A stretch of 64,000 nucleotides of DNA from Parcubacteria group bacterium Greene0714_7. Its GTDB lineage: Bacteria > Patescibacteriota > Minisyncoccia > Phycocordibacterales > Phycocordibacteraceae. The stretch covers positions 28,283 to 92,282 of the forward strand of contig VMHB01000003.1 in the NCBI GenBank assembly GCA_007378985.1. The letters run 5' to 3'. Shown piece by piece: positions 1,450 through 37,726 of the stretch (the stretch's first letter is position 1; each line of letters starts with the position of its first letter). The position numbers and the translations under genes are program-made. The notes under the pieces are model-generated. The model was not told where the DNA came from. It made no database searches and saw nothing but the letters and a program-made list of their open reading frames with translations.

Positions 1450-2442
1450 TTGGTGCATTCATGGGGTAGCATGGAGGAAATGTTACACAGCATATTGACG
1501 ACAAAGCCTTCTAAAGATTATGAACTTCTTGACTCTGGTTGGGAAGAGAAGCTCGAAAGGTATGGGAACATAGTGCTGGCTCGGCCTGACCCGCAGGCAT
1601 TGTGGGAGAAGCGTTTAGGAGATGAGGAATGGAAGCGAGCAGACGCATGGTATGAACGCAAAGCAAAGGGTGGCGACTGGCATTTTAAAAAGATTGTCTC
1701 TCCTAACACTCGTCCTTCGAGTACTCAGGACATGAGTGTTTCTGCTTCGCAGATTGGAAGAAACACTGAGCAGTCAGTGTTTCTTCCCAAAGAATGGCAG
1801 ATTGAACTCGGTGGGCTGAATTTTATTATTCGCCCTACTTCTTTCAAGCACACCGGCCTTTTCCCAGAGCAGGTTCCTAACTGGCAATGGGTTCAACAGA
1901 AGTTGGCAGAAAGCAGTGAGCAGAAAGCAGTCAAAGTTTTGAATCTTTTCGCCTATACCGGAGGGGCAACGCTCGCTGCCGCAAAAGCTGGTGCGCAAGT
2001 TACACATGTTGATGCTTCAAAAACTGCAATCGAATGGGCAAAGGCGAATGCAAAACTTTCTGGTTTGAATGAAAAACCAATTCGTTGGGTTACGGAGGAT
2101 GTAATGAAGTTTGTTGAGAGGGAAGTGAAACGAAAGAATACATATGACGCAATTATTATGGATCCTCCTGCTTTTGGTCATGGACCAAAAGATGAATTGT
2201 GGAAAATTGAGGAGAACTTTCTAATGCTTATGAAGCTCTGTAAAGCACTTCTGTCAGACAAGCCTATATTCATACTGGTGAGCGGATACGCTGCGGGGTA
2301 TTCATCGCTTGCGTTTGCACACAACCTAGAATCAATTATTGAAAAAAATGGCGGAGGTGTGGAAGTAGGAGAATTAACTATTGAAGAGTCGAGTAGCGGA
2401 CGTCTATTGCCTGCAGGAATTTTTGCGAGGTGGTCTAATTAA
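1450..2442 (+). CDS. class I SAM-dependent RNA methyltransferase (RlmI/YccW-like)
   Basis: LNLFAYTGG SAM-binding motif and an IIMDPPAFG (DPPxF) catalytic motif. Confidence 0.7.
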   Translation: MVHSWGSMEEMLHSILTTKPSKDYELLDSGWEEKLERYGNIVLARPDPQALWEKRLGDEEWKRADAWYERKAKGGDWHFKKIVSPNTRPSSTQDMSVSASQIGRNTEQSVFLPKEWQIELGGLNFIIRPTSFKHTGLFPEQVPNWQWVQQKLAESSEQKAVKVLNLFAYTGGATLAAAKAGAQVTHVDASKTAIEWAKANAKLSGLNEKPIRWVTEDVMKFVEREVKRKNTYDAIIMDPPAFGHGPKDELWKIEENFLMLMKLCKALLSDKPIFILVSGYAAGYSSLAFAHNLESIIEKNGGGVEVGELTIEESSSGRLLPAGIFARWSN

Positions 2443-2540
2443 AACGTTGATTCACGATACAAGATTCATGATTCAAGAATAAACTCCCAAGCTAGAAATC
2501 CTGAATCCTGAATCCTGATTCTTGAATCTATTTATTTTAT

Positions 2541-3944
2541 TTAAAAAAGTTTTGCGGTTGGGAGCGAATGAATCTCGCTAGTACGTTCTTTAATATCTAT
2601 TGGATATTCGCCAGTGAAGCATGAAGTGCAGAACATGTCGGGATGTAAGCCTGTTGCACGAATCAAGCCGTCATATGAAAGAAAGTGTAATCGTGTTGCA
2701 CCAAGGTATTCTCGTATTTCTTCAGGTGTTTTTTGTGCGCCAATGAGCTCTTTTTGGGTTGGTGTATCAATACCGTAAAAATCAGGAAATCGTACAGGAG
2801 GTGAGCTGACGAGGAAGTTTACTTCTTTCGCTCCTGCTTCGAAAAGCATTTGCACAATTTGCCTAGAAGTTGTCCCGCGAACTATTGAGTCATCTATGAC
2901 CACAACCTTCTTCCCTTTGATGACCTCTGGTAGTGGGGTGAGTTTTATTTTTACGCCCTGCTCACGAATATGTTGTTCTGGTTGAATGAATGTGCGGTGT
3001 ATATAGCGATTTTTTATGAGCCCTGTTTCAAGCGGAATCCCCAATGCTTGAGAGTAGCCTATCGCAACGGGCATTGCTGTTTCTGGAACTGGAATAATCA
3101 CATCAGCGTCTAATGGAAACTCTTTCGCAAGTTCAATACCAAAGTTTTTACGAACACCATAGACTGACTTGCCAAGAAGTACTGAGTCTGGCCGTGCAAA
3201 ATACACGAATTCGAATATATCAAGCTTTTGAATGCCCATCGCAATTTGCACAGAACGCATACCGCTCTCGTTTACTATAATCATTTCTCCCGGGGCTACA
3301 TCACGGAGTTCCTCGGCTCCAATGGGATGGAATGCGCATGTTTCCGATGAAAAAACAAACCCACCATTTAAGGTACCTATAGAGAGTGGACGAATACCGT
3401 AATTATCTCTGATGGCGACGAGGTTATGTTTATCCATTAATAGAATAGAAAATGCCCCTGTAAGGAGGGGAAATGTTTTTGGGACAGCGTCTTCTAGAGT
3501 AGAACCTTCGCGCATATGGACCGCAATGGCCTCTGCAATCATTTCAGAGTCAGAAAGTGTTTTGTAGGCAATGTTTTTTGAAGCAAGGAAATTCTCAAGA
3601 AGAGTAGTTGAAGGAATGTTGCCGTTATGTACTAAGGTGAGACCAACATCTTCTATATGTGTAGGTTGCGAGTGTTTGAGCTGTGAAGATTTTGAAGTTG
3701 AGTAGCGGTTATGTCCAACAGCAATGTGACCTACGAGGCGTTGAATGTCTTTTTCGGCAAATGCTTGAGCGACGAGGCCCATTTTTTTATGACAGAAAAT
3801 AGTTTCTCCGTTTGATGTGGCAATCCCAGAGCTTTCTTGACCTCGATGCTGTAAGGCGTAGAGTCCGAAGAAGGTGAGACGCGCAGCCTCCATTCCTTTC
3901 CCATAAACTCCAAAAACGCCACACTTTTCTCCTAAGTCAGACAT
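2541..3944 (-). CDS. purF: amidophosphoribosyltransferase
   Basis: N-terminal Cys nucleophile (MSDLGEKCGVFGVYG) and the PRPP-binding motif VVVIDDSIVRGTTS. Confidence 0.9.
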   Translation of the reverse strand: MSDLGEKCGVFGVYGKGMEAARLTFFGLYALQHRGQESSGIATSNGETIFCHKKMGLVAQAFAEKDIQRLVGHIAVGHNRYSTSKSSQLKHSQPTHIEDVGLTLVHNGNIPSTTLLENFLASKNIAYKTLSDSEMIAEAIAVHMREGSTLEDAVPKTFPLLTGAFSILLMDKHNLVAIRDNYGIRPLSIGTLNGGFVFSSETCAFHPIGAEELRDVAPGEMIIVNESGMRSVQIAMGIQKLDIFEFVYFARPDSVLLGKSVYGVRKNFGIELAKEFPLDADVIIPVPETAMPVAIGYSQALGIPLETGLIKNRYIHRTFIQPEQHIREQGVKIKLTPLPEVIKGKKVVVIDDSIVRGTTSRQIVQMLFEAGAKEVNFLVSSPPVRFPDFYGIDTPTQKELIGAQKTPEEIREYLGATRLHFLSYDGLIRATGLHPDMFCTSCFTGEYPIDIKERTSEIHSLPTAKLF

Positions 3945-4069
3945 TAATCAAAGTGTAACATAGGTGAGTTTGGGAATGAAAGATTAATCATTTTTTTCTA
4001 AGAGAATTCAAGGTATCATTGAATAAGTAAACCCGTTGGCGGTATTTTTCCTGAAATAATTTCTACTGC

Positions 4070-5155
4070 ATGAAGAAACTCATTATAGTCACTGACGCTT
4101 GGGCGCCACAGGTGAATGGAGTGGTAACGCTCTTTGAGCGAACTATTCCATATCTTAAAGAGCGTGATTTCGAAGTTACTGTTGTGCATCCAGGACTTTT
4201 TATTGCGTTCCCATTTCCGCTGTACCCAGAAATCTCTATGACATTTTTTCCTGATAGGAAAATGAAAAAGATATTTGATTCAGTTCAGCCAGACTATGTG
4301 CATATTGCAACTGAGTGGACACTAGGGCTTTCAGCTCGATCATTGCTAAAGGGGAGAGGTATTGCATTCACTACCTCATATCACACCAATTTTCCCCGAT
4401 ACCTTCCTCATTACATATTTGGGGGGACACTGCTTGCCGTTTTTTCTCGAGTGTACATGTCTTGGTTTCATAGTAGCGCTGAGGCGGTTATGGCAAGTAA
4501 TGATACTTTAAAGGCCGAGCTCGAGGCGCATAATTTTAAGAATGTTGTTCTATGGCCACCAGGTATTGATACTACTGTTTTCAAGCCAAATGAAGAAAAG
4601 AGAGCAGAGGTAAAATTTCCTCACCCGGTGTTTGTATATTTTGGAAGAATTGCAAAAGAGAAAAGTGTTGAGGAATTTTTGAGCATGGAACTTCCTGGTA
4701 CAAAACTGGTGATAGGGGATGGGCCAGAGCGAAAAAAATTGGAACGAAGGCATGGCAAGAAAAATGTATTTCTTGGTTACAAGCGAGGGCAGGAGCTCAT
4801 CGACATTCTCTCAGCGTCTGATGTTTTTGTTTTCCCTTCGCGTACTGAAACATTTGGTCTAGTGGTGCTTGAGGCACTTGCATGCGGTCTTCCTGTTGCC
4901 GCACACGATGTTATGGGGCCAAAGGATGTTATTGAAAATGGAGTTGATGGATTTTTGAGCGATGATCTCACTGAGGCTGCTAAAAAATGTTTAACACTCT
5001 CGCGAGAGAAGTGTCGTGAAAAAGCACTTACATTTTCGTGGGAACATTCAGCTGATATGTTTGCGGGCAATGTTGAGCGTTATGTAGGTGCAAATGCTCC
5101 TGTAGTTAATTTGCGCACCCAGCTCAAGAAGCTTGTTTCTAAGGTCTTTAATTAA
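4070..5155 (+). CDS. glycosyltransferase family 4
   Basis: GT4 C-terminal motif EALACGLPVAAHDVMGPKDVIENGVDGFL. Confidence 0.8.
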   Translation: MKKLIIVTDAWAPQVNGVVTLFERTIPYLKERDFEVTVVHPGLFIAFPFPLYPEISMTFFPDRKMKKIFDSVQPDYVHIATEWTLGLSARSLLKGRGIAFTTSYHTNFPRYLPHYIFGGTLLAVFSRVYMSWFHSSAEAVMASNDTLKAELEAHNFKNVVLWPPGIDTTVFKPNEEKRAEVKFPHPVFVYFGRIAKEKSVEEFLSMELPGTKLVIGDGPERKKLERRHGKKNVFLGYKRGQELIDILSASDVFVFPSRTETFGLVVLEALACGLPVAAHDVMGPKDVIENGVDGFLSDDLTEAAKKCLTLSREKCREKALTFSWEHSADMFAGNVERYVGANAPVVNLRTQLKKLVSKVFN

Positions 5156-5787: not shown

Positions 5788-5909
5788 AGAACATTCTAAA
5801 ATCTTCACCTGCTTTGTTGCTCGCTCCGCTCCTCCATCGCCATATACTGAATATGGCTCGGTACGGTGCTCACTCGCGCCTCGCATCTGAAGATTTTAGA
5901 AAGTTCTCA

Positions 5910-6299
5910 TCACTCATCATCTCTTGAGCGACGTGTCACGCCTTTCCCGTCTGGAAGCGCTCCCATTTCTTTCAGGATTTGGGGAATCATCGCTTTCGTC
6001 TTAGGGGTACGGTCAGCGCTCTCTTCTGCCTGCAATAGGACATCTTCATATGCAAAGCGCGCAGATGCTATACGGCCAGCCTGTAATCGAAGTCGGGCAT
6101 CTTGCAAGTTGTGTGCAAACCATGCTTCTTCGCGTTCTGGTCCCCATTCGGGATATGTTTTGTCGAGTTCCACAATCTGTTGGTCAAGCCACGCAAGATA
6201 TATCAAGCACTCCCTAAGAGTTTTCTGTTCAATGTTCAAAAGATCAGCAAGAGCTTGCCCGTTAGTTATTTCTTCTCGCCTCGTGAGACCCTCTGCCAT
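5910..6299 (-). CDS. hypothetical protein, second gene of a two-gene operon
   Basis: Its start lies 3 nt after the stop of the upstream ORF. No motif recognised. Confidence 0.5.
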   Translation of the reverse strand: MAEGLTRREEITNGQALADLLNIEQKTLRECLIYLAWLDQQIVELDKTYPEWGPEREEAWFAHNLQDARLRLQAGRIASARFAYEDVLLQAEESADRTPKTKAMIPQILKEMGALPDGKGVTRRSRDDE

Positions 6300-6302
6300 T
6301 TT

Positions 6303-6608
6303 TTAATCTATTAGTTTTGGTTCGGCTTCTAGTGGTCTCTTCTTTGGTGTGATGTTGTAGTTTTCGTGGAGGTATTGGAGGTTGTGACGTAGGCGTGCAA
6401 TCTGCATTTCAGCGATTTTCATTGCCTCGTCTTTTTCTTCAAGTTTATTTGCTGTTTCTTCAACAAAACCAAGTAAGGTTGAGAGCATTGCAAAGTAATC
6501 GCCATTTTCGACGTGGAAAATAAATTGCTTTAATTGTAGCGCTTCATCTTGGGAATCATCAAGAATGAGAATATTTGTTTGGCTGTCGGGAAATTGTAGT
6601 TCGCTCAT
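6303..6608 (-). CDS. hypothetical protein, first gene of a two-gene operon
   Basis: Complete ORF whose ATG sits about 12 nt from the MITE-like element. No motif recognised. Confidence 0.5.
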   Translation of the reverse strand: MSELQFPDSQTNILILDDSQDEALQLKQFIFHVENGDYFAMLSTLLGFVEETANKLEEKDEAMKIAEMQIARLRHNLQYLHENYNITPKKRPLEAEPKLID

Positions 6609-6622
6609 GAGCGGGTAGTATA

Positions 6623-6718
6623 CCCCATGAGATAATATGTTCGTGTGGAAAAGGATAGAATTTTTATCACATCAAAATTTTCGCTAATGCGTATTCTCTG
6701 ATCTGCTATCTCACGGGG
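6623..6718. mobile_element. MITE-like element copy 1 (96 bp): TIRs CCCCATGAGATAA / CTATCTCACGGGG, flanked by TATA direct repeats at 6619-6622 and 6719-6722
   Basis: The terminal inverted repeats match those of copy 2 at 24030-24124. The interior is diverged, and 4-bp direct repeats are present at both loci. Confidence 0.55.
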
Positions 6719-6773
6719 TATACATGCAACAAAAAATAACCAATCCTATATGTATCCACATCTCTGCATTTTT

Positions 6774-6808
6774 ATATATCCCTAATTCGCACGAATTAGG
6801 GATATATA
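6774..6808 (-). terminator. 16-bp perfect hairpin ATATATCCCTAATTCG/CGAATTAGGGATATAT downstream of the 6853-7479(-) gene
   Basis: Perfect inverted repeat adjacent to a T/A-rich tract. Confidence 0.5.
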
Positions 6809-6852
6809 AATCATAATTGAAGAATAGGTCGTGGTGTTGCTCAGTGTGTTTT

Positions 6853-11680: not shown

Positions 11681-11954
11681 GAGGGAAGGGAGGTAGGCGC
11701 ACGGGCTGGCTCTGGCGTAAATGCCTATTTTGGGTAGAATAGTGAGACATTCTGTGGTTAGCATTATTGCTTAGTTCCACAGAATTAAAGTTGTTTAACA
11801 ACATATTCCGCCGAGCGCATGGTTTTAAGAAAAACCATGCTTTCTCCGACGGCACTCGGACAATATGAAAGCATGCTTTCATATTGCTCCTCGCTTGTCG
11901 TAGGAGCTCAATTCTTGAGCTCCGGCGGAAACAAAGTGGGTAGAGCCCACGTAT

Positions 11955-12246
11955 TCCGCGGTAGCTCAATGGTAGAGCAGCTCCCTGTCCAAAGGCAGCC
12001 TTCCCGAGGAATCGGGATTGAAAAACGAGGTGAATTCGGGGAAACCCTAATCCTATAAAAGGATGGGCAATCCCGAGCCAAGCTCTGACGATTTGTTGGA
12101 GAAGGCGTAGAGACTATCCCGAAAGGGAGTAGGCCGAAAGGTCGAAGCGCCTCGCATCCAGATCGGATGATGATATAGTCCACGCCCTTCGTAATAGGGG
12201 ATCACGTGTAAGGAGTTGGTTGTAGGTTCGAGTCCTACCCGCGGAG
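11955..12246 (+). tRNA. tRNA-Asn(GUU) interrupted by a group I intron (intron 11989-12208). Exons are 11955-11988 and 12209-12246, and the spliced anticodon loop is CUGUUAA.
   Basis: 5' exon: acceptor TCCGCGG, D-arm GCTC/AATGGTA/GAGC, anticodon stem GCTCC, loop CTGT, then the intron. 3' exon: TAA, GGAGT, variable loop TGGTT, T-arm GTAGG-TTCGAGT-CCTAC, acceptor CCGCGGA, discriminator G. The intron has a P1 in which exon CUGU pairs with GGCAG (U35.G), GAAA tetraloops (GGGGAAACCC, TCCCGAAAGGGA, GGCCGAAAGGTC), the R element AGAGACTA, the S element GATATAGTCC, and a terminal G. Confidence 0.75.
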
Positions 12247-12254
12247 CTTGATAG

Positions 12255-23968: not shown

Positions 23969-24029
23969 TCTTAAATTCCTTAATGAATTGAAACCAAAAG
24001 AGATTTGGTGTGGTTTAGTGTGTAATACA

Positions 24030-24124
24030 CCCCATGAGATAACATATCTGTATCAAGAGGTGTAAATATTCTAACCATCAAATTGTATTGTAGTCGTTAT
24101 ATCTTGAGCTACTATCTCACGGGG
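24030..24124. mobile_element. MITE-like element copy 2 (95 bp), with the same TIRs as copy 1, flanked by TACA direct repeats at 24026-24029 and 24125-24128
   Basis: TIRs are identical to the 6623-6718 copy. The interior is about 50-60% similar. TSD is present. Confidence 0.55.
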
Positions 24125-24129
24125 TACAT

Positions 24130-24651
24130 ATGTCCTATAAAGCTGTCACGAAAACTCTAACCTATCAAACGAAGCATCGTTTAGAATTTATTAACATTAC
24201 TCCCGAAGTTGATTTATTTGTTGCAGATTCAGGAGTGCAAACAGGCACACTTGCACTTCAGACACACCATACGACCTGTGGTTTATGGGTGAATGAGGAC
24301 GAACCAAATTTAATTGGGCCATCCTCAACCCTTGGGTATATACCCGATTTGCAAAGAGTTCTTGACCGCTTTGCACATCCTGCTGAAACGTATGGCCACA
24401 ATGATATTCGTGATGTAAATAATCCTGAAGGGAAGCGCCACACGCATCTGTGTGTACCTGACGAGAATGGGGTGAGCCAAGAGTGCGTTAATGGGCATGC
24501 CCATGCCCAAGGTTTGATTATCCCGAGTTATCTGACGCTTATTATTGAGCGGGGGCAGGTAATTAGGGGAGTGTGGCAACAGATTCTTTTAGTTGAGCTT
24601 GACCACGACCGCACCCGTACACTTACCATGTTAGCCCAGGGTGAGGTTTAA
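24130..24651 (+). CDS. YjbQ/UPF0047 family protein (secondary thiamine-phosphate synthase-like)
   Basis: HHTTCGLWVNEDE and GHAHAQG motifs. Confidence 0.75.
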   Translation: MSYKAVTKTLTYQTKHRLEFINITPEVDLFVADSGVQTGTLALQTHHTTCGLWVNEDEPNLIGPSSTLGYIPDLQRVLDRFAHPAETYGHNDIRDVNNPEGKRHTHLCVPDENGVSQECVNGHAHAQGLIIPSYLTLIIERGQVIRGVWQQILLVELDHDRTRTLTMLAQGEV

Positions 24652-33555: not shown

Positions 33556-33935
33556 ATTTTATTAAAGGCTAACACTACAAAATATGTCTAACGAAGGAAA
33601 TCCCGCAAGTACAGAATGGCACTACATCACGACTGATACGGCCGACAAGGCTGTAGAAATTAAAAAAAGATTACACCTCCATCCAGGTCAAAAAGCACGA
33701 ATACATGAGGTGAGTGCAACAGAATTTGAAATCTTGATCACAGACAAGTAGTTTGATTTTTATATAACAAAAATATGGGAGAGGGAAAGAAAGAAAAAGT
33801 ACCCAGTCCAACTACGCTCAATCCATTTGATCCAAGCCTTGATCCAGAAGTTGCAGACAAAATAGCCACGCTTTTCATAGCATTAGTACGACGCCAAGGA
33901 AGCTCCTATCATCCTCAAGGCGGTAAACATCGAAA

Positions 33936-33984
33936 AACCCCTGTATAGTATAATTTAACGGTCGTTAAATTATACTATACAGGG
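33936..33984. repeat. 49-bp perfect palindrome CCCCTGTATAGTATAATTTAACG-gtc-CGTTAAATTATACTATACAGGGG. Flanked by an A-run and a T-run, so a candidate bidirectional terminator. It has a paralog at 1331-1372.
   Basis: Perfect inverted repeat, about 90% identical to the 1331-1372 palindrome. Confidence 0.6.
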
Positions 33985-34017
33985 GTTTTAGTTTCAGAAC
34001 ATGAAAGGTAGCTGAAA

Positions 34018-35433: not shown

Positions 35434-35460
35434 GTTAGATTTTGTTACGAGCGAAGCGAG

Positions 35461-35736
35461 TTAGGAAATCTTACACCCTGTTAAATACGATTTGAGGCGA
35501 CTATGTAAGAATAACTTGCCGTGGTGAGTTTTCAAGTAGCGCTCCCTTTTCATTGCATCCCGACGATCCAGGCACGCCTCGGAGTAAATGAGCGTAAACG
35601 GTTTGCGATCTCGTGTTGAACCTACTCGTCCTTTTTGGTGCGCCTCAAATCGTCCTTTCAAATCTTCACTATATCCCGTATAGAATTTGCCATCTTTCTT
35701 TGATCGGAGCACGTATACATAGCAGAACGTAATCAT
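35461..35736 (-). CDS. GIY-YIG nuclease superfamily protein (UPF0213)
   Basis: FCYVYVL...GKFYTGYSEDLKGRFEAH. Confidence 0.8.
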   Translation of the reverse strand: MITFCYVYVLRSKKDGKFYTGYSEDLKGRFEAHQKGRVGSTRDRKPFTLIYSEACLDRRDAMKRERYLKTHHGKLFLHSRLKSYLTGCKIS

Positions 35737-35794
35737 GATTTGAAAGGATTTAACGGGGTTAACAAAAATATAGTCGCTTACGCTTCTTATTTTT

Positions 35795-37726
35795 CTAAAC
35801 TATCTCATCAGGATCTACGGTTACCTCTATGTTAGGAGGTAATGCGCGGATACGCTCGGTGAGCGTGGTATTTGGCCATTCGCGCCGCGGAATACGTATG
35901 ACTGCGCGAGCACTCCATTCATTCTTTCCAATCGCTATAGGAGGAAGGGGTCCGACTAAATCAGTGTCAGAAAACATTTCTGTTATAGCTAGGCTTGTTT
36001 TTTCTACACTCACTTTTGTGCCTTTCCATAGGAGTCCTATAAAGGTAGTGAATGGTGGGTATCCGTATTGTTCGCGCTCTCTAATGTCTGAACGATAAAA
36101 ATCAGCAGGATTTCCAGAGGCAAAAGTTTTCATTACCTCACTGTCTGGTTTTCGTGTTTCTACAATAAACTGTAACTCAGCATGTTCTTGAAGATAAAAT
36201 AGTATGGAAAGAGTGTGTTCGTGTGCCCGCCATGCAGTGATGGAGAGCATACTGTCGAGTGAAGCAACGGCTACAATTTCTACTGGCTTTTTTAGATAGG
36301 GAAGCATTCTCTCAGTGCCGATGAGTATGGCGCCTTCTGTAGAGAAAAATTCTTCTGCGAGTTTTTTCGCTGTGCGATGTGTGGGAGCGCTATCTTTTGT
36401 GAATGTGATGAGTGGAGAGTCAGGGAATGCTTTTGCAAGTTCATCGGCAACTCGCTCAACTCCAATACCTAAGGTCACCAAGTTCCACCCCCTGCATGTT
36501 TTGCAAGGTGTTTCCGATGGTAAAGTCGCGCCACTTCGGTGCGACATGAACTGATTACCGTCTGCAGTTTTATGAAGAACCATCGGCACCCCCGTATGAG
36601 GGTCAGTTACTGGAGTGCCACAATCATTGCATACAGTGAGAGGGGCAATGCCACGCCTCGCTGCAAAAACAACTGCACGACCACCGCGAAGTATTTTGCG
36701 ATGTATCTTTTCTTTTGTGTCATCAGTAAGGGCGGTAAAAACACGCCTGACTTTTTTTGATGTTTGCTCCAAGGGTATTTCTTTTGTTCTGGTATCAATA
36801 ATATTCACCTGTGCAGTACCGCTTGGTCGTATTTGGGATCTCGCTAACTCGTCCATCTCATGTGCATCTACTCGGTAGCGTGTTTCTATGCGAAGAGGGA
36901 AGTCTGCAAGTATGAGTCGCGCGCCCATTCTTCTGCAGAGGGATTCCGCGCATCTGCGTACATCTACATGAGGCCTGGAAAATCCTCGGTATCCACGCGC
37001 ACTCTCACGTTCAACAACTATTGTGCCAATGTTCACGCGTGGTGCAGAAAGTGCGAAGGCAGTTCCAATGATGAGCACTGGTTTTGTGTCGGTACTGCAT
37101 CGATTCCATGCTTCAATTATTTTTTTCTTACTTACTTCACTGGTAAGTAGAAGTACATGGTCTTCAATTCCACGCTTCAAATTTTCTTCCATCTGTTCTG
37201 CCTCAATAACCGTAGGTACTATAATCATGACCGATTCACCGCGAGCAAATGATTCTCGAGCAAGATTTCTATAAGTTCGAACACGTTCTTCTTTTTCAGC
37301 TTGCAAGACCAAAAGATCTGCGCGCACGACAGGCTCGGTTTCGAGATTAAGCTCAGCTGTTGGCTCAAGAACGGCTTCGAGTTTATTGGAAGCGGTCAAA
37401 ATTACTTGTGATGTAAGCGTTGCAAACATAACGCTCTCATGTACCCCATGCCAGAGCGCCGCATCTTTCACCGCCGCAACAAATGCACTCGTGACAATGC
37501 GTTTCGGTTTTGTTTTTGGTGATATTTTCTTTAATGAAAAATCAGCACTACGAAGATCGAGTTTTTCTTCACGCGCATCTCGGCTCTCAATAACAAGCGC
37601 AGGGAGTGATCTATTACGAACGGAGACAGTTACTATCATGCCTGCAGGTATAGCGTCACGAGAAAAAAATGTTAGGTGATCCCGAAAAACCCCTCGTGCT
37701 ATGGGCATGACACGGACGATGAACAT
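35795..37726 (-). CDS. priA: primosomal protein N' (PriA helicase)
   Basis: DEAD-like helicase motifs plus the Cys4 zinc-binding region CNDCGTP...CKTCRG. Confidence 0.85.
   Translation of the reverse strand: MFIVRVMPIARGVFRDHLTFFSRDAIPAGMIVTVSVRNRSLPALVIESRDAREEKLDLRSADFSLKKISPKTKPKRIVTSAFVAAVKDAALWHGVHESVMFATLTSQVILTASNKLEAVLEPTAELNLETEPVVRADLLVLQAEKEERVRTYRNLARESFARGESVMIIVPTVIEAEQMEENLKRGIEDHVLLLTSEVSKKKIIEAWNRCSTDTKPVLIIGTAFALSAPRVNIGTIVVERESARGYRGFSRPHVDVRRCAESLCRRMGARLILADFPLRIETRYRVDAHEMDELARSQIRPSGTAQVNIIDTRTKEIPLEQTSKKVRRVFTALTDDTKEKIHRKILRGGRAVVFAARRGIAPLTVCNDCGTPVTDPHTGVPMVLHKTADGNQFMSHRSGATLPSETPCKTCRGWNLVTLGIGVERVADELAKAFPDSPLITFTKDSAPTHRTAKKLAEEFFSTEGAILIGTERMLPYLKKPVEIVAVASLDSMLSITAWRAHEHTLSILFYLQEHAELQFIVETRKPDSEVMKTFASGNPADFYRSDIREREQYGYPPFTTFIGLLWKGTKVSVEKTSLAITEMFSDTDLVGPLPPIAIGKNEWSARAVIRIPRREWPNTTLTERIRALPPNIEVTVDPDEIV

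Follow-up and report, generated by a model that had tools for sequence, protein, structure and literature searches.

The window (the whole 64-kb stretch of DNA that was analysed), which belongs to a Kaiserbacteria-like genome of the Patescibacteria, contains two elements of 95-96 bp with common 13-nt arms, and in this the sequence-only reading proved accurate in both sequence and position. The elements and the genes beside them are as follows.

6303..6608, minus strand: 101-aa gene; the -10-like TATACT box 8 nt 5' of its ATG is the target of copy 1
6619..6622, no strand: left 4-bp direct repeat of copy 1, TATA
6623..6718, no strand: copy 1 of the short element, 96 bp, arms at 6623-6635 and 6706-6718
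6719..6722, no strand: right 4-bp direct repeat of copy 1, TATA
24026..24029, no strand: left 4-bp direct repeat of copy 2, TACA
24030..24124, no strand: copy 2 of the short element, 95 bp, arms at 24030-24042 and 24112-24124
24125..24128, no strand: right 4-bp direct repeat of copy 2, TACA, 1 nt 5' of the yjbQ ATG at 24130
24130..24651, plus strand: yjbQ-family gene (PF01894), starting 5 nt beyond copy 2

Copy 1 has the structure gTATA-CCCCATGAGATAA-70 nt-CTATCTCACGGGG-TATAc, with a GC content of 33% in its interior, and copy 2 has the structure aTACA-CCCCATGAGATAA-69 nt-CTATCTCACGGGG-TACAt. Of the 13 arm positions 11 are complementary, all but positions 5 and 13 (A versus G); the A/G difference between the arms that had been remarked upon earlier is indeed alike in both copies. 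Taken together with its flanks, copy 1 forms a 17-nt inverted repeat that is 94% complementary. When up to two mismatches are allowed, the only arm matches in the window are the four that belong to copies 1 and 2. A given 13-mer is expected to recur in 64 kb about 0.002 times, and the recurrence of two different 13-mers at equal spacing (82-83 nt) rules out chance. A gapped alignment gives 64% identity between the interiors, shuffled sequence gives 51 +/- 3%, and none of 500 shuffles matched the score; the two copies are therefore diverged relatives rather than unrelated DNA between conserved ends. Both are noncoding, a six-frame HMM search having found neither a conserved ORF nor a GIY-YIG remnant in them.

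Copy 1 has a perfect hairpin (6771-6810) on one side and, 14 nt away on the other, the start codon of the minus-strand 101-aa gene. The intergenic region that contains copy 2 separates two divergent genes, whose ATGs are 61 nt (minus strand, 23968) and 5 nt (yjbQ, 24130) from the element. The earlier placement of both copies directly 5' of minus-strand genes needs correcting for copy 2, which is much nearer to the plus-strand yjbQ (5 versus 61 nt). The hairpin just upstream of copy 1 is a palindrome with 19-nt arms (TTTATATATCCCTAATTCG tg CGAATTAGGGATATATAAA) and belongs to about 70 nt that are absent from the related locus L266.

Empty sites in related genomes

Syntenic loci of close relatives were reached through homologues of the flanking proteins. 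For copy 2, the relatives L252, L253 and L254 (YjbQ 96% identical, DNA 93.4% identical) have an empty site with a single TACA, ..GGTTTAGTGTGGAG-TACA-TATGTCC.. (GGAG-TACA-TATG), where the window has ..TACA-[95 bp]-TACA-TATGTCC. For copy 1, L266, whose flanking protein is 93% identical, has an empty site with a single TATA, ..TTTTTGTAGCATG-TATA-CTACCCACTCATG.. (GCATG-TATA-CTACCC), where the window has TATA-[96 bp]-TATA; once the window flanks are joined and one TATA is removed, they align to L266 without a gap. The single tetranucleotide of the relatives means that each window copy consists of the element plus a 4-bp direct repeat, and the suggestion that these repeats are target-site duplications is upheld by the empty TACA and TATA sites. 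On these comparisons, both window copies are real insertions. A third element, flanked by TATA/TATA and located 13 nt 5' of an ATG, is found in L253-L255, and L256 is probably its empty GTATACT site.

The TATACT box, followed after 7-8 nt by ATG, is conserved before the 101-aa gene in L266, L267 and L268. Within the window's own lineage, copy 1 is fixed in six contigs in one orientation throughout. The orientation of copy 1 does not vary among six strains, which rules out an inverton.

The same region shows other differences in gene content. The 129-aa gene (5910-6299, minus strand) and an adjacent 120-bp inverted repeat, with 25-nt arms at 5788-5812 and 5883-5907 placed 70 nt apart, are missing as a block (5788-6302) in L261, L264, L266 and L268, in which lexA directly follows the 101-aa gene. 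Window positions 5788-6302 are thus a second insertion/deletion polymorphism with a long-spaced inverted repeat. In L267 (3193-3942) and L268 (3194-3940), relatives at 84-88% protein identity, radC separates the 101-aa gene from the 208-aa gene; neither L266 nor the window lineage has radC there.

A family of short elements in several phyla

We scanned one genome per species with the pattern CCCCRTGAGATA-N55-85-TATCTCAYGGGG; at least 118 stretches matched, and 135 elements were analysed. The earlier proposal of a MITE-like family is well supported, as more than 118 stretches of other genomes carry 12-nt arms at this spacing, often several per genome. Copies 1 and 2 are most likely MITEs in the operational sense of the term. 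Among the matches listed are Patescibacteria (Kaiserbacteria, Saccharibacteria, Nomurabacteria and Paceibacterota) as well as Planctomycetota, Verrucomicrobiota, Omnitrophota, Ignavibacteriota, Bacteroidota, KSB1 and Nitrospiraceae. A few of the matches listed come from MAGs labelled proteobacteria, and two of these 'proteobacterial' matches, L063 and L098, may be mis-binned Patescibacteria contigs or the result of very recent transfer. The element interiors of L063 (3051-3146, in a MAG labelled Alphaproteobacteria) and L084 (1680-1775, in a Saccharibacteria MAG) are 100% identical. The scan of viral contigs with the short pattern gave 0 matches.

The 135 elements among the matches listed cluster tightly in length (93-98 bp). 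A position-by-position profile of 132 of them has no conserved interior base; the informative positions are confined to gTATA-arm..arm-TATAct in Patescibacteria or TTYA-arm..arm-TRAA in other phyla. An exact 4-nt direct repeat surrounds 53 of the 135 (a 5-nt repeat, 4 of 135), and 16 of the 4-nt repeats among the matches listed are the non-palindromic TGTA, TACA, TCTA or TAGA. Some MAGs, for example VMGC01, CAYPGH01 and CAYGFN01, have five or more short elements each, and several genomes have families of copies that are 82-100% identical. Tandem arrays also occur, in which neighbours have one tetranucleotide in common; the junctions read GGGG-NNNN-CCCC, where NNNN is TATA, TACA, TCTA, TGTA, TGAA or TTCA. 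Judged from these arrangements and the empty sites, the 95-bp element moves as a unit whose ends are flanked by 4-nt direct repeats.

The genes that adjoin the short elements are unrelated to one another. The ATGs of long ORFs pointing away from the element peak 12-17 nt from its ends (37 of 270 ends, with a background of about 0.7 per nt), and upstream ORFs often end at a TGA or TAA within an arm.

A GIY-YIG unit with the same arms

The same arms are found at a wider spacing in L071 and L115, about 260 nt apart around an ORF of 84-86 aa. Pfam identifies the encoded protein as a GIY-YIG domain (PF01541; E=2e-16 and 5e-17, both passing the cut-off), and the right arm forms its last four codons, TAT CTC ACG GGG (YLTG), as it does in many other GIY-YIG units of about 280 bp. 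A metagenome scan for canonical arms spaced 245-275 nt gave at least 120 stretches, and the ratios that follow refer to the 120 listed. GIY-YIG similarity is enclosed by 117 of these arm pairs, with ORFs of 84-90 aa in a whole unit of about 280 bp, and the remaining three are tandem short elements. Intact ORFs ending in YL[TM]G number 78 of the 120, the first flanking bases giving the stop codon. Among 80 proteins, the columns of the catalytic motif (Y.Y, Y.G, R, H, E) are conserved. The nearest solved relatives are the UPF0213 proteins PDB 1zg2 (E=6e-8) and 1ywl (E=2e-3), and homologues of the GIY-YIG protein fall into 6,024 clusters at 50% identity (E<=1e-3).

Across about 260 listed loci, no gene other than GIY-YIG was found between the arms, which otherwise enclose short elements. 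The search for an IS or transposase with matching ends thus gave a divided answer: a coding partner exists, but what it encodes is a GIY-YIG nuclease instead of a classical transposase. No TnpA was present in the loci examined, and no long-range arm pairs able to bound an IS were found; the arms of L009 sit among ATP-synthase genes. In that Omnitrophota MAG (2100-4400), a GIY-YIG gene and solitary or short-loop arm hairpins lie at gene junctions of the ATP-synthase operon (atpC .. atpE-GIY-atpF-atpA). GIY-YIG genes adjoin short elements in L052, L066, L071 and L009. L067, a short element of 85 bp, retains coding sequence for the final 24 residues of the GIY-YIG protein and is the sole short element in which the six-frame HMM search found a GIY-YIG remnant. 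Patescibacteria-type GIY-YIG units with TATA/TATA flanks are seen in L229, L141 and L164; when the window copies were compared with the subterminal 35 nt of such units, no similarity was found past the arms. Nine pairs of metagenomic units are 88-97% identical, yet their 200-nt flanks are unrelated on both sides.

The window has a diverged GIY-YIG unit of its own.

35434..35800, minus strand: conserved resident GIY-YIG unit, approximate extent from the alignment and gene contexts
35461..35736, minus strand: 91-aa GIY-YIG gene between priA and def, ending in ..SYLTGCKIS (tblastn; Pfam PF01541, E=2e-16; PDB 1zg2, E=6e-8)
35476..35486, minus strand: 3' arm of the unit, ATTTAACAGGG, within the YLTG codons and pairing with the 5' arm
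35748..35758, minus strand: 5' arm of the unit, CCCCGTTAAAT, 11 nt 5' of the ATG

The resident arms differ from the canonical ones at 3 of 12 positions, and two of the changes are compensatory, G-C pairs having become T-A and A-T. L239 and L240 also have the resident block of about 365 bp, together with its non-coding ends, there with thyA and dcd on either side, and the arms CCCYGTTAAAT/ATTTAACAGGG are common to these and to the window unit. The thyA-dcd pair, which would be the empty site for the L239-type unit, does not occur in the window, nor does a GIY-YIG unit with canonical arms anywhere in its 64 kb. In L104 the arm variant AGCCCGTTAGAGA/TCTCTAACGGGCT is a perfect 13-nt repeat. The inverted repeat of these diverged units (window, L239/L240 and L104) is kept by compensatory changes. 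On sequence grounds, then, the arms are shared by and co-evolve with the GIY-YIG gene, and the same unit occurs in unrelated contexts.

Target sites of the type-A units

The GIY-YIG units that we call type A have the flanks TTCA/TAAA. They lie directly 5' of a host TAAAG, whose AA completes their stop codon. No direct repeat was found around them at offsets 0-6. At least 27 of the 120 listed units split genes for tyrosine recombinases (IntI/Xer-like) exactly between LLGH and KDVSTTMIYTHV (the LLGH/KDV site); the loci include L119, L125, L127, L128, L134, L139, L165, L172 and L175, together with L201, L204, L213, L218, L231, L233, L234, L238 and others. The filled site reads CAT TCA[unit]TAA AGA C and the uninterrupted one CAT AAA GAC, the latter also being present within the same contigs. 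Other type-A units occur at VRDG/KG and G/KDVDF of tyrosine-recombinase-type genes, always 5' of the host TAAAG.

Three further GIY-YIG units (L207, 4768-5045; L215, 1420-1698; L150, 4257-4534) abut ..GGGG/AGGAAAGTCCG and adjoin sub-threshold matches to RNase P RNA (RF00010, E 1e-13 to 1e-15). These units appear to be inserted in rnpB, with their arms in place of the P3 stem.

The retained arm mismatch and the hairpin

At arm position 5, the 135 short elements listed have the combinations G/C (52), G/T (46) and A/C (37), and A/T is never seen. Position 5 is mixed, with A in one arm and G in the other, in 43 of the 53 members of the direct-repeat class. Intact type-A units show flank pairs of TTCA/TAAA (56) and TTTA/TGAA (15), and Watson-Crick combinations in 10. 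One stem position is therefore retained as a transition mismatch across both the short elements and the type-A units. The G.U version is not biased to the transcribed strand (10 versus 6, p=0.45). A retained mismatch with no such bias favours a role at the level of DNA, for example in telling two ends or strands apart, and speaks against a role in an RNA hairpin.

Could the elements nonetheless be primarily regulatory or structural parts of the host genome, such as an RNA leader, a stabiliser hairpin or a paired operator/promoter cassette for the downstream genes? Several observations agree with this. Hairpin folding is strong (z = -2.2 to -6.9), many start codons lie 12-17 nt from element ends beside TATAcT, copy 1 is fixed within its lineage, and the replacement of the P3 stem of RNase P RNA by a GIY-YIG unit in three contigs means that the stem is tolerated in RNA. 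Against it, relatives have no element at either site and yet keep the same TATACT or start context, the interior is unconserved, the orientation to transcription is unbiased, and the adjoining genes are mutually unrelated. Rfam 15 gave no covariance-model match to the window at gathering score, and none to 6560-6780 up to E=10. Simple scans of both copies detected nothing resembling a sigma-70-type promoter or a terminator, whether at the ends or inside, with counts not above those of shuffles. We consider a primarily host-regulatory function very improbable. The structured 5' leader with a selected G.U pair that had been proposed earlier is not borne out, given the absence of an Rfam match (E<=10), of a conserved interior position and of a transcribed-strand bias. 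A promoter role, also proposed, is possible, and as insertions lie in or beside -10-like TATA boxes 12-17 nt 5' of start codons, secondary effects on expression are likely.

Discussion

We suggest that copies 1 and 2 are probably a non-autonomous mobile element of 95-96 bp, mobilised by the arm-recognising GIY-YIG nuclease of the 280-bp units (approximate size), the short elements most likely being the non-autonomous partners of this GIY-YIG mini-element. The element has two inverted arms of 12-17 nt, (gTATA)CCCCRTGAGATA / TATCTCAYGGGG(TATAc), with roughly 71 nt of unconstrained DNA between them. It inserts at TNNA, with a preference for the TATA in -10-like boxes that precede start codons by a few bases. 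In our model, the arms would be recognised by the nuclease, probably acting as a dimer where two ends abut or are synapsed across a 4-nt spacer; two ends that abut form a 28-bp palindrome with a spacer of 4 nt, on which a dimeric nuclease could plausibly act. The nuclease would then make staggered cuts, 4 nt apart, in element ends and target, after which ligation or repair by the host would finish the move, leaving the tetranucleotide on both sides. Short elements could thus be mobilised in trans. That the GIY-YIG protein is the mobilising enzyme, and that it acts by cut-and-join chemistry, we infer from the arms and their gene. We know of no GIY-YIG enzyme that transposes DNA; these enzymes hydrolyse DNA and do not carry out strand transfer, and for this reason we put forward GIY-YIG-driven transposition as a hypothesis only. 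The type-A units, which have TTCA/TAAA flanks and no direct repeat, mean that a single simple mechanism does not yet cover the whole family.

The main rival is that the short elements are MITEs moved by a conventional transposase (DDE or other), the GIY-YIG mini-genes being passengers or a second non-autonomous class. A 4-bp duplication of fixed length is what DDE transposases typically leave, strand transfer is not known for GIY-YIG nucleases, and the interiors of the short elements are unrelated to the GIY-YIG units, all of which would fit such an explanation. The arm pairs, however, enclose nothing but GIY-YIG or short elements at the roughly 260 loci, the right arm of type-A units lies inside the GIY-YIG frame, and in diverged members the arms co-vary with the gene. 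An arm within the frame that also co-varies with it is hard to explain if another protein reads the arms, and we therefore regard a conventional transposase as unlikely. Still less probable, and the least so of the explanations considered, is that the elements are not transposed at all and serve a site-specific recombinase as attC-type or invertible-switch recombination sites. Their conserved imperfect inverted ends, variable centre, length of about 95 bp and retained mismatch do resemble attC, and some type-A units are located within tyrosine-recombinase genes. The ends CCCCRTGAGATA ... TATCTCAYGGGG, however, do not contain the attC core RYYYAAC / GTTRRRY, the window copies lie outside cassette arrays, and the recombinase genes are interrupted by the units and not partnered with them.

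Taken by themselves, the window copies are ordinary MITEs; what is unusual is their link to a minimal GIY-YIG unit with identical ends across phyla. GIY-YIG units and short elements are spread over Patescibacteria, PVC phyla, FCB phyla and others, with 12 nt of their ends identical. Such identity from Patescibacteria to Planctomycetota implies that spread has often been horizontal and that protein-DNA recognition is under tight constraint. One study counts GIY-YIG genes among those passed from Patescibacteria to other bacteria (PMC12455944). We propose, tentatively and at somewhat under even odds, that the arms mark an undescribed class of prokaryotic mobile DNA, in which autonomous units of about 280 bp encoding a single GIY-YIG nuclease of about 86 aa, with its final four codons also serving as one terminal repeat, are accompanied by non-autonomous derivatives of about 95 bp. 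We found no description of these elements in the literature covered, which did not extend to subscription journals, so that an earlier description is possible.

The closest parallels in form are Correia/NEMIS elements (Neisseria), RUP and ERIC. Like the elements described here, they are about 100 bp long with terminal inverted repeats and a short AT-rich target duplication, are multicopy, sit in intergenic DNA next to gene starts and give hairpin-forming transcripts. Correia elements have outward -10-like ends, and no transposase is known for them. The present elements differ from all three in having arms that are identical over at least eight phyla around an unconserved interior, and in that their sole coding relative has a GIY-YIG nuclease and not a transposase. 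IS200/IS605 elements and their PATE/MITE derivatives are alike in very small size, hairpin-forming ends and tandem insertion, and the type-A units resemble them further in sitting beside a specific short target with no duplication; here, in contrast, there is no HUH transposase, the repeats are terminal rather than subterminal, and Patescibacteria-type copies have 4-nt direct repeats. The REPIN/RAYT system (PMC2817692) also combines a palindromic doublet of about 100 bp, dispersed in intergenic DNA, with a single small gene between the same repeats in inverted orientation. In our case, the gene between the repeats encodes a GIY-YIG protein and not an HUH/Y1 (RAYT) transposase, there is a 4-nt direct repeat, the right repeat is inside the coding sequence, and the distribution is across phyla, unlike the one vertically inherited copy per genome of RAYT.

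Two groups of GIY-YIG proteins are also relevant. The seg genes of phage T4 encode free-standing GIY-YIG homing endonucleases (PMC2330249, PMC2988022) and are alike in being small, selfish and site-preferring, with insertion between or into conserved host genes, as seen here for type-A units 5' of TAAAG, including at LLGH/KDV. Seg proteins, unlike the present ones, are larger and have DNA-binding domains; their genes have neither terminal inverted repeats nor non-autonomous derivatives, and spread by gene conversion between homologous loci, whereas the units described here occupy many unrelated sites. The UPF0213 / YhbQ-YazA proteins (PDB 1zg2, 1ywl) have the same size and the same single GIY-YIG domain; they are annotated as hypothetical, and we found no report of mobility, a YLTG terminus or a flanking inverted repeat for them.

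MITEs are commonplace, and it is normally a DDE or HUH transposase that mobilises them. Should movement be driven by the nuclease itself, no autonomous transposable element smaller than the GIY-YIG units would be known, and these units would be the first DNA transposons to rely on a GIY-YIG enzyme. Confirmation would add a new enzymatic class to DNA transposition, explain the many orphan 'GIY-YIG nuclease family protein' genes in streamlined genomes, and provide a very small sequence-specific nuclease and site pair that could be used as a tool. There is also a consequence for gene calling in candidate-phyla genomes, which is affected by elements that lie in -10 boxes, supply stop codons and interrupt integrase genes and RNase P RNA.

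Other features of the window

A group I intron is present at 11899-12250 (RF00028, 64.6 bits). It appears to split the anticodon loop of a tRNA, with exons TCCGCGGTAGCTCAATGGTAGAGCAGCTCC.. and ..GGAGTTGGTTGTAGGTTCGAGTCCTACCCGCGGA; ARAGORN did not call this split tRNA. Two perfect palindromes, at 33934-33989 and 1331-1372, have a common 20-nt arm, CTGTATAGTWTAATTTAACG. The palindrome at 33934-33989 is embedded in AAAACCCC..GGGGTTTT, downstream of fmt, and the pair may represent a repeated family of terminator-like hairpins.
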